A stretch of DNA of 45,626 nt, from the IMG/VR virus record IMGVR_UViG_2579779076_000011; one strand, 5' to 3'. This DNA is from a virus (Duplodnaviria > Heunggongvirae > Uroviricota > Caudoviricetes). Of this stretch, positions 19,299 to 44,610 are shown one piece after another. The position numbers were made by a program, and so were the translations under genes. The notes below the pieces were generated by a model. That model was not told where the DNA came from. It was given only the letters and a program-made list of their open reading frames with translations, and made no database searches. Every line of letters starts with the position of its first letter. Position 1 is the stretch's first letter.

Positions 19299-19712
19299 GG
19301 GGATCTCCCTCGTTTTGTCAGTTGTACAAGCCCCTGGAAGTAGGCTACTAATAAAGAAAAAATTACCTTTGAATAACTGTGCAAGATAGCAGTACGCCTA
19401 AAAGTAGTGCAAGTATCCCAACCAGGATAACGATGCGTTTTCAAATATCTGACTTAACGCTTGCGATATCCGCTCTGGCAACAAAGTAGACTGTCAGATT
19501 AAATTTGTCTTCACGCCATAGATGTGTCAGCTCATATCTTATCTAATACACACAACATTCTCTCATTCTTAGAGAATTAATCTTTTAAGGGTAGGTGTTG
19601 ACGTTAGAACAAAAGAATAGATATTTTTGAAGCATATAATATGAGCTATAACCATAGGACGCATATAAAAGCTTACGGTGTGGTCTTATAATTTGGCACA
19701 AATGATTTACTA

Positions 19713-38609: not shown

Positions 38610-40115
38610 ATGAGCACTAATTTTTTGCACGGCCCACGCACGCTAGAATACGACGACGGCACAAAAGAGATCAGCGCGGTAGATATTTCAGTTATCGGGA
38701 TTGTTGGTACTGCACCGGATTCCGCGCAATCAACCAGTTCCGAGTTAATAACAGGGAGTGCTATTTTAAAAAACCGCCTTAAATTCACGGCGACGGGACA
38801 GGGGGTGAGGGGCAATTCATGGAGCGTAGAGATTCTCGAAACCGATCCGGACGGCTGCACGGCACTGTGGAGTGATATGCCCGACGGGAGTCGACGTTTA
38901 TCAATATCAGTCGCACCGGCATCCGGCTCGCACGGATACACCCCAGCAGAAATCGTGCAGGCAGTCACAATAGCAAACCCGCCTCCGGACCAATTATTTT
39001 TAACAATTACGGCAGTAGATGTCGGGGAGGACGCGGGAAATGTGACTGCCTCACCGTTGCAATATTTAAGTGGCGGCAGTGATGAGGCGTTCCCAATTAA
39101 TACCCCCGTACTTGTTGCCGGGAGTCCAAAAAAAGCCGCTTTACTGGGTGAGCGCGGCACGTTGCCGAAAGATATTGCCGATATTTTCAATCAGGACAAC
39201 GCCTTGCTTGTTGTTGTACGAGTAAAAGATGACAAAGACACAACAAAACAACAGCAAAATATTATCGACGGTGTCAAACAGCTGGAAAAATCGAAACAGT
39301 TAACCGAAGTCACACCGCGTATTATTATTGCACCAGATTTTAGCGCAATTGATGCGATAGCCGCTCAGCTTGAGGTGGTCGCAAATAAACTCCGGGGGGT
39401 GTGTTATATAGACTCTCCGCGCGCAGCTACCCCTGCAGACGTTGTGAATCGCCGGCAAAAACTCGGCGGACGTGCTGAGTTGTTGCGTCCCCGTGTTTAT
39501 TCAACTAGCGACGTAGGCGGACAATCAAGACCATATTCAGCCATTGCTGCTGGTTTACGAGCCAGAATTGATAATGAAAAAGGGTTTTGGTGGAGTAAGT
39601 CGAATCAAAATATTTATGGAATAACAGGGCTTGAGCAGGTTGATGATTTCATTATTGGCGAGACAAACTGTACGGCGAACCTGCTGAACGCCAGCCAGGT
39701 CAGCACCATTATTCGCTACGATGGATTCCGGCACTGGGGTAACTATCTGTGCAGTCTGGATCCACAATGGTCGTTTGAATGCGTTCGTCGGACAGCTGAC
39801 GTAATTGAAGATTCTATAGCCCGGGCAATGATGACAGATTTTATTGATCGCCCGATAGACCTGCATCTCGGAACAGACGTTGTCGAGTCGATAAACGCAT
39901 ATCTGCACAAATTAGAGGAGCAGGGTGCGATTAACGGAGGGCGAGCGTGGTTAGACGGTGAGCTGAATACAAAAGAAAGTCTGGCCGCTGGTAATCTTTA
40001 TATTAATGTTGATTTTGGTCCGAAATCTCCAGCACAAACAATTACGTTAATGTACCGCGTTAATAATGACTATACAGTTGAAGCGCTGGCCTCCCTTTTT
40101 AAAGAAACAGCCTGA
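38610..40115 (+). CDS. contractile tail sheath protein (P2 FI-like)
   Basis: 501 aa; LRARIDNEKGFWWSKSN, IRYDGFRHWGN, AGNLYINVDFGP parallel the P2 sheath. Confidence 0.9.
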   Translation: MSTNFLHGPRTLEYDDGTKEISAVDISVIGIVGTAPDSAQSTSSELITGSAILKNRLKFTATGQGVRGNSWSVEILETDPDGCTALWSDMPDGSRRLSISVAPASGSHGYTPAEIVQAVTIANPPPDQLFLTITAVDVGEDAGNVTASPLQYLSGGSDEAFPINTPVLVAGSPKKAALLGERGTLPKDIADIFNQDNALLVVVRVKDDKDTTKQQQNIIDGVKQLEKSKQLTEVTPRIIIAPDFSAIDAIAAQLEVVANKLRGVCYIDSPRAATPADVVNRRQKLGGRAELLRPRVYSTSDVGGQSRPYSAIAAGLRARIDNEKGFWWSKSNQNIYGITGLEQVDDFIIGETNCTANLLNASQVSTIIRYDGFRHWGNYLCSLDPQWSFECVRRTADVIEDSIARAMMTDFIDRPIDLHLGTDVVESINAYLHKLEEQGAINGGRAWLDGELNTKESLAAGNLYINVDFGPKSPAQTITLMYRVNNDYTVEALASLFKETA

Positions 40116-40132: not shown

Positions 40133-40645
40133 ATGTCAGACAGCAACGCTTACCGCGCGTTTGCGCTATTCGTGCAGGGCGAACGGGTTTTAAATTGTAC
40201 TGAATATACTCCTGTCGATATGAAAATAATCGAGGACGAGTTTAAAACAGGCGCGATGGATACAGCCATCACATTAGATGGCGGTATGGAGAAAATGTCA
40301 GCCAGTTTTAAAGTTTCGGGTTCTGATTCTGGTGTTATGAGCTATTTCGGGTTAATACCGGGAGTCAAGACGCGGTTTGAAATTCGTAGTGCGTACACAG
40401 ACTCCTATGGAATAAATTTTGAGCGTATTGATACCTACGAGGGACTTATTACGGCAATCACTGATGACGCTCAGGGGACTGATTCAAAATCGTCAGTGGG
40501 GCAATCAGTAACGATTGCGCCGAGCTATTATAAACGAGTTCAAAATGGACGAATTATTTACGAAATTCATCCTGCAAAAATGAAACGCGTTATCAACGGT
40601 GTTGATGTTCTTGCGGGCGTCGCTCGAATCCTTCATGTATATTAA
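40133..40645 (+). CDS. tail tube protein (P2 FII-like)
   Basis: 170 aa immediately after sheath; size and position typical of a tube protein. Confidence 0.7.
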   Translation: MSDSNAYRAFALFVQGERVLNCTEYTPVDMKIIEDEFKTGAMDTAITLDGGMEKMSASFKVSGSDSGVMSYFGLIPGVKTRFEIRSAYTDSYGINFERIDTYEGLITAITDDAQGTDSKSSVGQSVTIAPSYYKRVQNGRIIYEIHPAKMKRVINGVDVLAGVARILHVY

Positions 40646-40657
40646 AAGGTAAGTAAA

Positions 40658-40939
40658 ATGGAATCCTTATTAGACAGTATGACTATTACGCTCTCTCGAC
40701 CGTTTATTATTAAGGGCGAGAGCTGCGATACAATTACTATTCGCGAACCAAAATTACGCGACCGCATTATGTTCAGTAACGATAAAAGCGGTCTTGAAGA
40801 GCGGACAGCGACAATGCTGGCGCGCCTGGCAAATCTGGAGAGAGAGGATTTATATGCGCTCCCCGCGTGCGATTACGATCAACTGGAGGCCGCGTTTAAC
40901 GAACTGGTAAAGCACCCGAAAGACCGACATCAGATATAG
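40658..40939 (+). CDS. tail assembly chaperone (P2 gpE-like); probable frameshift extension to 41070
   Basis: 93 aa with the ..IREPKLRD...DLYALPACDYDQLEAAF pattern; a -1 frame is open from 40900 to 41070 across the stop and into the tape-measure start. Confidence 0.65.
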   Translation: MESLLDSMTITLSRPFIIKGESCDTITIREPKLRDRIMFSNDKSGLEERTATMLARLANLEREDLYALPACDYDQLEAAFNELVKHPKDRHQI

Positions 40940-41047
40940 TTATTCTGATTCCGTTTATTGCGAAAAAACTTGCCATCCCGCCCGATACGCAAATGGACCT
41001 GCCGTATCGGGTTTTTAATTTCTATGTAAACGAGGTCATGAAAACCG

Positions 41048-42688
41048 ATGGCTATTTCTCAAAACTTTAAAACGCAGGTTGTATTTGGGGGAAGAATAGA
41101 CCCGTCGTTTCGGCGCGGTACAACAGAACTCAACGATGCAATTCGGCAGACGTCGTCTACTGTCGGAAAATTAACGAAAAGCCAGGATAAATTAAAAGAC
41201 AAAATCGCAGCAATGAAACTGGCGGGTAAAGACGTTTCTGATTTATCTGCTCAGTATCAAAAGCTGGACCGTCGGATAAAAGCGACAACACAGGACCAGG
41301 AAGCTCTGAATACTCAGCTCGCCAAAAAACAGCGGCTGGAGAAGTGGACGGGGCGCGCAAAAGGTGCTGCAAAATGGGGAGGGCGAGCCGCCGCAGGTGC
41401 GGTGAGGGCCACGGGACGGGGTATCAAATGGGGGACGCTGGGGGCCGTGGGTCTGCTCGGCGGCGCGGCTGCTGGCGCGTTGGCAATGAATGCAGAGACG
41501 TCAGAAAAACTCGGTCTGGCGAAGTCCTACGGTGTTGGCATCGAAAAATACGCTGCGTGGGAAAATATTGGTAAAGCTGCAGGGCTGAATGGCGAAAACG
41601 TAGGAGATCTGTCGGAGGAGTTGACTAATAAAATCGGGGAGGTTGGAAACGAAAAAAACCTGAACCCCATGTTGTTTCAAATTGGCCTGACAAAAAAACG
41701 GATGGCTAAATGGGATCGAGAAAAACAGTTCAATGAAGTTATGCGGCGTATCTCTGAAATGAAGGATGATCAACAGGCGGCGAGTCTGGCTGATCAGCTC
41801 ATGGGGGGGGAAGCTAATAAAATAATGACTTATATGCGGGCGACTGGTAAAAGCTGGGAGCAGACTCTGTCGGACGCTCAAAAATCAAACCTGCTAACGA
41901 AAGAAGGGGCTGAGGGTGCAGCGCGCGCGCACGTATCCGTCACGAATCTGTGGGGGGCAATCACATCGGGGCTGGCAGATACTCTCGGGAAAATCGGAGG
42001 GGAACTCGCGCCGACGTTTGACGCTATGCGAGACGGGCTGGCATCCTGGTTTAAAGAGAATCAAGGGGGGGTTGTTGATAGTATTAAAGAATGGGTTAAG
42101 CCAGAAAATATGAAAAAAATGTGGGAGGGGATAGTCAGTTTTGGCGAGGCGTGCGTTAAATTCGGAAAAATAATTTGGGCAGTCGTAAAAAAACTGGAGT
42201 GGTTAATACCGGACGAGAAAACAGACGAGGAGCAGCGCGTATATAACGAAGAATATAATAAGGCGTATCAGGAATTCATGGATGGCGGAGGAAAATATTC
42301 ACCAAACCCAGGAATGGCGGCGGATAATGTTGCAAAAGCAAAAGCCGCCGAAGCCGTGGATAATATGCGACACCCTGAACGTCTTGCTCGTGCAAAATCA
42401 CAGGCTGAATCACTGCTCTCGTTTGCTAACCCGTTTACTGGATTAATAAATAAAGGCTCAACGCCTGAATCACAAAACTCAGCAACGTTGAATATTGACG
42501 CGCTGAGACAAGCAGTCGCAACTCCAGCGCCAGAGCAAAACAATAAAATTGAAATCAATATTATCGGAGCGGCAGATCCACAATCAACACAGCAGGCTGC
42601 TGCATCGGGTGTGCTCGACGGGCTGAGACAAGTTGCGAGTTCGTACAACCGTGGTGCGATGTTTGATAAACCAGCGGCGGCGGGGTGA
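41048..42688 (+). CDS. tail tape measure protein
   Basis: 546 aa; coiled N-terminal region, Gly/Ala-rich hydrophobic stretch; position after the chaperone. Confidence 0.8.
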   Translation: MAISQNFKTQVVFGGRIDPSFRRGTTELNDAIRQTSSTVGKLTKSQDKLKDKIAAMKLAGKDVSDLSAQYQKLDRRIKATTQDQEALNTQLAKKQRLEKWTGRAKGAAKWGGRAAAGAVRATGRGIKWGTLGAVGLLGGAAAGALAMNAETSEKLGLAKSYGVGIEKYAAWENIGKAAGLNGENVGDLSEELTNKIGEVGNEKNLNPMLFQIGLTKKRMAKWDREKQFNEVMRRISEMKDDQQAASLADQLMGGEANKIMTYMRATGKSWEQTLSDAQKSNLLTKEGAEGAARAHVSVTNLWGAITSGLADTLGKIGGELAPTFDAMRDGLASWFKENQGGVVDSIKEWVKPENMKKMWEGIVSFGEACVKFGKIIWAVVKKLEWLIPDEKTDEEQRVYNEEYNKAYQEFMDGGGKYSPNPGMAADNVAKAKAAEAVDNMRHPERLARAKSQAESLLSFANPFTGLINKGSTPESQNSATLNIDALRQAVATPAPEQNNKIEINIIGAADPQSTQQAAASGVLDGLRQVASSYNRGAMFDKPAAAG

Positions 42689-43113
42689 CAATGAGTGATG
42701 CGATAAACGGTGCTGAGGATATCATGCTAGGCGTGGGTGATTTCATTTTTGCTATATCAACAGTAGCGTACAACAAACTGCAACGTAGTGACGCCTGGCG
42801 CTGGGCTCAGCAAACACGGTTCGGAAAAAACGACGCATTGCAGATAACCGGACGACCGAACCCCACAATCACGATCGATGGGAAAATAAATGCCTTATTC
42901 CTTGATGGGTGCGGCATTGGCTTGTTAACAGATTTGCGGGCGCTGGGGAACTCGGGAGAACCCCAGCAACTGGTGCTGGGGACCGGGGAGGTGAAGGGGT
43001 ACTGGGTTATCAGGGAGTTAACAGAAACGCAAAACAGTTTTCTGAAAGGAGGGACCCCAAAATCGCAGGACTTTTCACTCACGCTCGAATATTACGGAGC
43101 TTCGCTGGATTGA
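42685..43113 (+). CDS. tail protein (P2 gpU-like)
   Basis: 142 aa; LGVGDFIFAISTVAYNKLQRSDAWRWAQQTRFG parallels the P2 U N-terminus. Confidence 0.7.
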   Translation: MTMSDAINGAEDIMLGVGDFIFAISTVAYNKLQRSDAWRWAQQTRFGKNDALQITGRPNPTITIDGKINALFLDGCGIGLLTDLRALGNSGEPQQLVLGTGEVKGYWVIRELTETQNSFLKGGTPKSQDFSLTLEYYGASLD

Positions 43114-43352
43114 ACTTCTTTCGGTTTTTTATCACCGAGAGCGGACCACAGCAACAGAATGATCCACATCAAAAATATCCATCCGAATAATATATTCAGA
43201 ATAACGACCATTGCGCAGCTTTTATGTCCCCTTATTAGAGCAATTACTAACGGTATTACGTATAAAATGATGGATATTAACGGGTTCGCCATTAACCATA
43301 TATACAGAGCGATAACCCACGCAAATAATTCCATTTGAGGCCTCATAATCAT
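43092..43352 (-). CDS. superinfection-immunity-like small membrane protein (Imm_superinfect-type), reverse-strand moron in tail cluster
   Basis: 86 aa; two hydrophobic helices with ..IPLVIALIRGHKS...ILNILFGWIFLMW.. matching the superinfection immunity family; opposite strand to all flanking tail genes. Confidence 0.6.
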   Translation of the reverse strand: MIMRPQMELFAWVIALYIWLMANPLISIILYVIPLVIALIRGHKSCAMVVILNILFGWIFLMWIILLLWSALGDKKPKEVQSSEAP

Positions 43353-43566: not shown

Positions 43567-44610
43567 ATGAGTGATTACGTAAATACTGGCGTGGAGGCGT
43601 GGAAACCTAATTTTTATATATCTGCTGATAATAAAAACATCACGGATAAAATAAGAAAAGGTTTGATCAATATCACGCTGACAGATTACGGCGGTTCCAG
43701 TAAACAGACAGACGAACTCCGCGTAGCAATAGTTTCTGAAACTCTGAAAATTCCGGCCCGTGGAGTGAAAATTAGCATTGGGCTCGGTTTCGGTAATCAG
43801 ATAATTGATAAAGGCATATACATCGTTGACGGTGCTAGCAGTGGCGGTGAACCCCGGGTAGTTGATTTCACAGCAAAAGCGGCTCCGATGAACGCGGCAA
43901 AGGGCTCTCCAACAGTTCAGAGCAAAAAGACGCGCTCATGGAGCGACGTCACCGTCAGCGATATCGTTGCGACAATAGCGAGCGATAACGGGCTAAAACC
44001 TCGCGTATCAAAGCGGTTTGCAGACAACATTATCACGCAGCTCGATCAAGTCGGTGAGTCAGATATGCACCTGATGTCGAGACTAGCAACACGATTCGAT
44101 GCGGTGAGCAAACCCGCAGGAGGGTACTGGATATTCCTGCCGCGTGGCGCGGGCGAATCTGTTAACGGAGCACCGCTTCTGCACTACACGCTCACGCGTC
44201 GTGATAACTCCAGCTGGGGTTATTCGAGAAATGGACAAAACGGCGATAGTGGCGGAGGTGGCGAAAATTCGGAGCCGACATATCTGATCAAATACCACGA
44301 TACGGCAACAGGGCAGATCAAGGAGCTGCGCACAGGCAGTGGTGGTGATCCTGTCATTGAATGGCCGGCAGTTGAGCCGTCGCTCGACGCAGCGAAAGAG
44401 GCCGCGCCGGGGCTAAAAGGAGGTGCGGCTAAAAAAGAGTTTTCCATGACGTACACAACGCCAGCAACGCTCGATTTAGTATCGCTGACTGCAGAATGCA
44501 AAGTCACAACACAAGGGTTCGGGACAGAGGAGGACCGAGACTGGACAATCAATACGTTGACGCTGACGCTGGCTGAAAACGGATTCTCTGCGCGACTGTC
44601 GCTGGAGTAA
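43567..44610 (+). CDS. tail protein (P2 gpD-like)
   Basis: 347 aa at the canonical D position after X; called by position and size. Confidence 0.65.
   Translation: MSDYVNTGVEAWKPNFYISADNKNITDKIRKGLINITLTDYGGSSKQTDELRVAIVSETLKIPARGVKISIGLGFGNQIIDKGIYIVDGASSGGEPRVVDFTAKAAPMNAAKGSPTVQSKKTRSWSDVTVSDIVATIASDNGLKPRVSKRFADNIITQLDQVGESDMHLMSRLATRFDAVSKPAGGYWIFLPRGAGESVNGAPLLHYTLTRRDNSSWGYSRNGQNGDSGGGGENSEPTYLIKYHDTATGQIKELRTGSGGDPVIEWPAVEPSLDAAKEAAPGLKGGAAKKEFSMTYTTPATLDLVSLTAECKVTTQGFGTEEDRDWTINTLTLTLAENGFSARLSLE

Follow-up and report, generated by a model that had tools for sequence, protein, structure and literature searches.

A probable programmed −1 frameshift at a non-heptamer site in the gpE-like tail chaperone gene of an Escherichia coli prophage

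Virus record IMGVR_UViG_2579779076_000011, a stretch of 45,626 nucleotides (nt) that we refer to as the window, is an Escherichia coli prophage whose tail module follows the gene order of phage P2, and one part of that module poses a question. The gene for a gpE-like tail assembly chaperone is separated from the following, putative tape-measure gene by 108 nt; adjacent tail genes lie 12–17 nt apart or overlap. Is this gap coding, and if it is, how do ribosomes enter it? A sequence-only reading had suggested that a programmed −1 frameshift extends the chaperone, as E′, across the gap and into the start of the tape-measure gene. Neither the E′ open reading frame (ORF) nor a 137-residue fusion is annotated in three related records (two RefSeq [PGAP] E. 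coli genomes and one phage), where the 108 nt are left as a gap. From the comparison of this region with its relatives, it seems very likely that the prophage makes a 137-residue chaperone fusion by programmed −1 slippage on the motif G_GTA_AAG, an event of the P2 E/E+E′ kind; the slippage in this phage, its site and efficiency, and the roles of the protein's domains are what we infer, the last by analogy with better-known phages.

Two overlapping frames at the end of the chaperone gene

The chaperone gene (40658..40939, plus strand) encodes 93 amino acids in what we call the zero frame and ends in a TAG stop at 40937–40939. Its product matches PF10109 (Phage_TAC_7) with E = 2e-16 and 60 bits against a cut-off of 25, over profile positions 1–78 of 79, as well as PHROG 166 (tail protein; E = 1e-25), and RefSeq names it 'phage tail assembly protein'. 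In the −1 frame of the same strand, a TAA at 40897–40899 marks the upstream limit for a productive slip, and from 40900 the frame is open to a second TAA at 41068–41070, reading RTGKAPERPTSDIVILIPFIAKKLAIPPDTQMDLPYRVFNFYVNEVMKTDGYFSKL before that stop. This ORF overlaps the start of the tape-measure gene (41048), which itself lies in the frame of the chaperone, by 23 nt, and its first 31 residues in the window include no ATG, GTG or TTG codon. The positions that the sequence-only reading had given for the chaperone, the open −1 frame, its stop, the tape-measure overlap and the slip motif all hold on recheck; its figure of about 45 added residues was close, the −1 frame running 43 codons beyond the chaperone stop. 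A slip on the proposed site would give the product join(40658..40912, 40912..41070), in which 85 zero-frame residues are followed by 52 from the −1 frame, 137 in all, where the unshifted protein has 93. The E′-like extension (40912..41070, plus strand; APERPTSDIV...GYFSKL, then the TAA) would be joined at its A-P-E-R...S-K-L to M1–K85 of the chaperone, and the predicted junction tryptic peptide is APERPTSDIVILIPFIAK, following ...AFNELVK, with the R-P bond uncut by trypsin.

An open frame of this length is not in itself improbable. With stop triplets at a frequency of 0.045, an uninterrupted run of 56 codons or more has a probability of about 0.07, and one of 43 or more a probability of about 0.14. 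Long −1 extensions are, moreover, common among the ORFs of the window because downstream genes overlap them, so that a test against chance is uninformative, and it is the relatives that have to show whether the −1 frame is translated. Homologous loci were gathered from viral contigs, metagenomes and genomes; the scan of genome contigs gave five loci, those of viral contigs and metagenomes gave more, and one further locus (L076) was added through a protein match. In all intact homologues, among approximately 45 distinct loci with the region on the contig, the chaperone gene shares its 3′ end with a −1 ORF that extends 33–50 codons beyond the chaperone stop, and one interrupted locus (L056) is the exception; the +1 frame of the same loci is usually short and is not conserved. 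Lack of a conserved −1 ORF in related phages would have spoken against the frameshift from the outset, and that ORF is kept in every intact locus.

A further comparison is within the clade of the window, which consists of the window and L014, L032/L033, L071 and L076, five diverged members whose chaperones, where measured (L076 excluded), are 71% to 56% identical to that of the window. Their −1 peptides align without gaps, as in ...DI(V/I/L)(I/L)L(I/L)P(F/Y)(I/V)(A/S)K.L.IPPDTQ..(L/M)PYRVFNFYV.E.... Over the 102 nt that no other gene occupies (40945–41046), pairwise differences among the five members are distributed 66:40:124 over the first, second and third codon positions of the −1 frame, the ratio of nonsynonymous to synonymous substitution rates (dN/dS) of that frame is 0.14–0.45, and both other frames contain stops. 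The −1 peptide of this clade is thus under purifying selection at the amino-acid level where no other gene shares the sequence. Ahead of the conserved peptide, ATG, GTG and TTG are lacking from the −1 frames of four of the five members, and together with the coding-type pattern of substitution this means that the apparent gap is coding and can be reached only by way of the chaperone frame.

The same observations bear on the view that the −1 frame is untranslated and that the 108 nt serve as a regulatory element of RNA or DNA, such as a terminator-like hairpin or the ribosome-binding region of the tape-measure gene. The composition of the stretch would permit an open frame of this length, and a hairpin within it, described below, is under constraint at the nucleotide level; we nonetheless regard this explanation as very improbable. 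Substitutions of the coding type are seen in the −1 frame alone while the other frames carry stops, the E′ peptide is homologous to −1 peptides of clades without the hairpin, and in a variant of the kind found in sequence type 131 (ST131) the change that breaks one pair of the stem leaves the −1-frame amino acid as it was.

A second explanation that can be judged from the relatives is that a mutational frameshift, or a sequencing error, has split a formerly single, longer gene. Indels do occur in this gene, in the single assemblies that underlie P0001–P0004, P0014 and P0017 and in L056. As an account of the arrangement in the window, such an accident is scarcely credible: the two frames are arranged identically in 455 complete E. 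coli genomes and in the intact homologues of four clades, and the 93-residue form ends where a gpE should, gpE of P2 having 91 residues (PMC3091744).

The interrupted sequences deserve a description of their own. In L056 (IMGVR_UViG_2806310672_000010, 1201–1487) the chaperone breaks off after 45 codons and its remainder continues in the −1 frame, which points to a genuine inactivating indel or a faulty assembly and not to the programmed site. Two database proteins of 137 residues, P0001 and P0002, were considered as natural fusions and rejected, each being from a single assembly with an indel; other broken versions include the +1-frame fusions P0003 and P0004 and the indel-bearing P0014 and P0017. 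When P0001 was run against the whole library with HMMER, no diverged in-frame fusion appeared. The search yielded P0033 and also L076, the fifth member of the clade, and one match that spanned the junction, P0058, was rejected as a low-complexity repeat protein.

The shift site and its surroundings

A productive slip must fall between the −1-frame stop at 40897–40899, which lies one codon nearer the motif in L032, L071 and L076, and the chaperone stop at 40937. This zone of the window holds only two in-frame tetramers, A_AAG (40909–40912) and C_CCG (40915–40918). The first is part of the proposed shift site, G_GTA_AAG (40906..40912, plus strand; zero-frame codons CTG GTA AAG), in which GTA AAG at 40907–40912 is in frame with the ATG at 40658. 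G_GTA_AAG is the only shift-prone motif common to all five members of the clade, and its conservation extends to positions that the protein does not require: of 40 degenerate chaperone codons whose amino acid is invariant in the clade, seven are invariant as codons, and four of these seven lie close together: GAA, GTA and AAG at or immediately ahead of the site, and CCG two codons past it. The run GAA-NTG-GTA-AAG is codon-invariant clade-wide, apart from its variable N, compared with 3 of the 35 amino-acid-invariant degenerate codons upstream. Such frozen synonymous positions support selection on the nucleotides themselves, and the comparison in this way bears out the choice of G-GTA-AAG as slip candidate, which had been made from one sequence.

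Slippage elsewhere in 40900–40939 has to be considered here, for instance on C_CCG or by slippage of RNA polymerase, and the exact slip site is not readable from sequence alone. C_CCG is an in-frame tetramer that in reporters gave 1.8–3.6-fold more frameshifting than background (PMC4066793). It is, however, T_CCG in the common variant and is lost in the differing contexts of L014, L032 and L071, which leaves G_GTA_AAG as the one motif invariant in the clade, and transcriptional slippage is disfavoured because the overlap contains no homopolymer run longer than three. We consider a different slip event quite unlikely.

Sister clades in the same chaperone family place a shift-prone sequence at nearly the same point. 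Many carry T_TTT_TTG, correctly framed and one codon 5′ of where G_GTA_AAG falls in the window, and others have T_TTT within GTTTTTA (GT_TTT_TA) or A_AAT_TTT. The window's own motif belongs to a class with precedents. A_AAG is the most shift-prone Z_ZZN tetramer in E. coli, where a single Lys-tRNA re-pairs cognately on AAA (PMC4066793), and NNA_AAG hexanucleotides are in natural use, as with G_CGA_AAG in IS1222, their efficiency depending on the 5′ codon (PMC5009743). No measurement of GUA_AAG turned up in our literature searches, and searching full texts for the heptamer returned nothing relevant. Non-canonical motif classes in tail chaperones, 'twoonefour' among them, are part of what the account of PRFect reports (PMC10885494).

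These considerations suggest the following course of events. Most ribosomes would stop at 40937 and release the 93-residue gpE-like protein, while a fraction, probably a small minority, would slip back by one nucleotide on G_GTA_AAG (40906–40912). The likeliest event is that the single Lys-tRNA of E. coli moves from AAG (40910–12) to AAA (40909–11); the Val-tRNA would move from GTA to GGT, where its re-pairing would be imperfect, with one central mismatch, and since this mismatch is expected, the slip would be driven mainly by the A-site tRNA. Ribosomes that had slipped would then read the 52 codons of the −1 frame and stop at 41068–41070, 23 nt inside the tape-measure gene, giving a 137-residue fusion that would be the counterpart of gpE+E′ in P2 and of gpGT in lambda. 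In lambda, the domain shared by G and GT sits on the tape measure, and the tube protein is recruited by the part unique to the frameshifted form (PMC5009743). On this analogy, the N-terminal domain common to both forms would coat the tape-measure protein here and the −1-encoded C-terminus would bring in the tube protein, a low rate of slippage fixing the ratio of the short to the long form.

A hairpin is predicted close behind the site (40921..40956, plus strand), beginning 8 nt after it and holding the chaperone stop codon in its loop, and it could be a stimulator. Folding of 40913–40963 gives −9.8 kcal/mol (z −2.7, p 0.013), and hairpins are predicted 3–12 nt downstream of the site in the window, L014, L032 and L071 (p 0.007–0.13). 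RNAalifold finds no common slip-proximal structure in the clade and no covariation support, and in clades with strong heptamers the z-scores of the downstream fold scatter around 0. The folds are at most suggestive of a stimulatory role. A GGAGG at 40885–40889 lies 16 nt upstream of the motif, a spacing that exceeds the one in dnaX.

P2, lambda and the evidence on both sides

In P2, gpE and gpE+E′ are encoded in the FETUD tail operon, and the fusion is described as an established product (Christie et al. 2002, as reported in PMC3091744). The parallels with the window are close. P2 gpE+E′ matches PF10109, as does the chaperone of the window; the gene occupies the same place, between tube (FII) and tape measure (T); and the −1 ORF of P2 is likewise without a start of its own and overlaps the end of the chaperone. 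The products have 91 and 142 residues in P2 (PMC3091744) and 93 and a predicted 137 here. Differences exist as well: the overlap with the tape-measure gene is 8 nt in P2 and 23 nt in the window; the P2 shift site is T_TTT_TTG (PMC3091744), with the slip annotated at 19685 in AF063097, whereas G_GTA_AAG lies one codon downstream of that position; the sheath of the window is longer and its tape measure, at 546 residues, is shorter; and the terminator-like hairpin inside the E′ frame of the window has no equivalent that we found in P2. Taken together, the PF10109 match, the gene order, the conserved coding −1 ORF and T_TTT_TTG in sister clades support the likeness to P2 E/E′ on which the sequence-only reading was built.

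Lambda gpG/gpGT offers a second comparison: close to where its chaperone gene ends, ribosomes slip by −1 at a low rate, Lys-tRNA moving from AAG to AAA (PMC5009743), and the ratio of fusion to short form matters for tail assembly (PMC5009743). The lambda site, G_GGA_AAG, differs from that of the window by one base (GGG to GGT), and this base separates the two mechanistically: the P-site Gly-tRNA of lambda can re-pair fully on GGG, whereas the P-site Val-tRNA of the window would be mismatched on GGT. No sequence homology was detected, and the lambda tail is that of a siphovirus where the present one is contractile. Sites at which the A-site Lys-tRNA re-pairs to AAA without full re-pairing in the P site, as we suppose here, are known from IS1222 (G_CGA_AAG) and from Bacillus cdd (A_CGA_AAG) (PMC5009743). 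Those sites lie in transposase and deaminase genes, and the 5′ codon of the window is instead GTA; they also depend on stimulators, for which the window offers a candidate at best. A distant PF10109 homologue in Burkholderia phage Mica (MT701586), 32% identical to the chaperone of the window, has a −1 frameshift product annotated by its depositors that ends beside the tape-measure gene. Its site is a classical heptamer, A_AAT_TTT, and by eye its E′ peptide is unrelated to that of the window.

More distant relatives of about 180–200 residues (P0028, P0036, P0043, P0047, P0048 and P0056) contain tandem PF10109-like domains. Each copy ends in ...F(S/T)(N/K)FL(D/S), at the point where single-domain genes have the slip site.

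The −1 peptide of the window matches nothing in Pfam, PHROG or NCBIfam, and a sequence search of the PDB with it gave nothing significant and no sequence-related solved structure. Profile comparison places it among its nearer relatives: hhalign aligns it with the E′ peptides of two sister clades, at P = 4e-5 for the one carrying T_TTT_TTG and at P = 2e-4 for the one carrying GT_TTT_TA, and by this measure the E′ of the window is homologous to theirs.

Several observations weigh against the interpretation that we favour. The open −1 frame, taken by itself, is not significant (P about 0.07–0.14). The chaperone gene, scanned from end to end, contains no X_XXY_YYZ heptamer, in agreement with what had been noticed at the outset, and tetramers without a stimulator reached 0.147% in reporters against a background of 0.112% (PMC4066793); with a strong pseudoknot, tetramers reached 0.26–5.6% (PMC4066793). 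The slip-proximal hairpins predicted in most members of the clade have differing pairing registers and modest z-scores, and L076 is essentially without one (z −0.3). Alignment with P2 E′ sequences, proposed earlier as a check, shows no relationship: hhalign finds no similarity between the E′ of the window and that of P2, and E′ peptides of the window's clade give no match to PF06528 (Phage_P2_GpE) up to an E of 10, where P2 E′ itself scores 2e-22. The 137-residue database fusions cannot be counted as evidence, because they come from assemblies with indels and because +1-frame fusions occur beside them. Finally, it is possible that L076 makes a separately initiated E′ of 40 residues by translational coupling, given that its chaperone stop and an ATG in the E′ frame overlap as TAATG (L076, 1495–1505).

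If what TAATG permits in L076 were general, E′ would be a small protein of its own, produced by reinitiation after the chaperone stop, perhaps at the non-AUG codon ATT at 40948–40950, and no frameshift would be needed. A gene caller does predict the 40-residue ORF in L076; the codon equivalent to 40948–40950 is ATT in the window, L032 and L071; and the conservation upstream of this codon falls mostly within the dual-coded overlap and is hence uninformative. The distribution of start codons does not follow this pattern, however, for the other four members of the clade have no ATG, GTG or TTG at that place, L014 has CTC there, and no Shine-Dalgarno-like sequence precedes the ATT. Separate initiation would further leave unexplained why the −1 frame is open back to the motif in all loci and why the synonymous positions of GTA and AAG are frozen, and in sister clades the P2 heptamer stands correctly framed, the fusion being an established product of P2 (PMC3091744). 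We judge separate initiation unlikely and retain programmed slippage on G_GTA_AAG as the explanation of this locus.

A second hairpin, the tail module and the place of this lineage

The stretch between the two genes contains a terminator-like element (40981..41021, plus strand) that lies within the E′ frame, 70 nt downstream of the slip site and ahead of the tape-measure start. It has the form CCCGATACG-N13-CGTATCGGG followed by TTTTTAATTT, with a GC-rich stem of nine base pairs and a 13-nt loop; its fold has −17.7 kcal/mol (z −3.2), and a pattern scan lists 40995–41014. It recurs at the homologous place in L014, L032, L071 and L076. Across four diverged members the loop changes but neither arm does, and no third-codon position within the arms varies (six of six invariant, compared with 14 of 34 in the region; P = 0.002). 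A C-to-U change in L076 keeps its pair as G.U, and one pair becomes an A.C mismatch in the ST131-type variant. None of the other chaperone clades has the element. It probably serves a function separate from the coding of E′, and in sequence it looks like an intrinsic terminator or attenuator placed ahead of the low-copy tail genes, where, as a partial terminator, it may lower the expression of tape measure, gpU, gpX and gpD.

A further idea, which we put forward as improbable, is that the weak hexanucleotide site and this hairpin form one attenuation device. A leading ribosome that stopped at the chaperone stop codon would leave the hairpin free to form, transcription would end, and few transcripts of tape measure, gpU, gpX and gpD would be made; a frameshifted ribosome would translate through the hairpin region and block its folding, and RNA polymerase would read on. 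If this were true, frameshifting would set the ratio of E to E+E′ and also that of the high-copy tail proteins (sheath and tube) to the low-copy ones.

The rest of the tail module runs in the order sheath, tube, chaperone, tape measure, gpU, gpX and gpD. Sheath (38610–40115; PF04984/PF17482) and tube (40133–40645; PF04985) precede the chaperone. The 546-residue ORF that follows it (41048..42688, plus strand; taken from the ORF list) matches PHROG 3654, of unknown function, with E = 1e-247, and tape-measure PHROGs weakly; it is a putative tape measure, assigned from its place between the chaperone and gpU. Beyond its 3′ end come gpU (PF06995), then gpX (PF05489) and, directly after gpX, gpD (PF05954, a weak match below the Pfam cut-off). 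Between gpU and gpX the operon is broken up by an ORF for an 86-residue hydrophobic protein on the minus strand (43092–43352), to which RefSeq gives the name 'superinfection immunity protein' in an identical gene; it looks like a moron inserted into the tail module.

The prophage is not confined to one isolate. A 551-nt stretch around the chaperone end is 100% identical in strain CFSAN061769, and 455 of 5,426 complete E. coli genomes match it with at least 90% identity, all of them on the chromosome and ST131 strain EC958 among them; four small Escherichia phage records are about 90% identical. In CFSAN061769 (L002, NZ_CP042969, 6325–6551; compare 43567–44610 of the window) an IS5-like element of the ISKpn26 family, annotated as frameshifted, lies some 360 nt beyond gpX, and the annotation there shows no gpD gene. 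The prophage of that strain, otherwise identical to that of the window, may be disrupted.

Frameshifting in tail chaperones is textbook phage biology, and the finding here therefore mainly corrects an annotation: the kind of frameshift is well known, and what is new is the membership of this prophage lineage and its non-heptamer site. In a larger context, the shift site has turned over within one chaperone family, with T_TTT_TTG, T_TTT, A_AAT_TTT and G_GTA_AAG found at nearly the same codon. In the clade of the window a weak hexanucleotide site would have taken the place of the canonical heptamer, one that allows no full re-pairing in the P site and yet has its synonymous positions frozen. Frameshift finders limited to X_XXY_YYZ would miss such a site. 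The locus would serve as a natural test case for the yield of slippage that an NNA_AAG site provides where a phage gene depends on a set ratio of proteins, and for the question whether a weak motif can be offset by a hairpin close to it.

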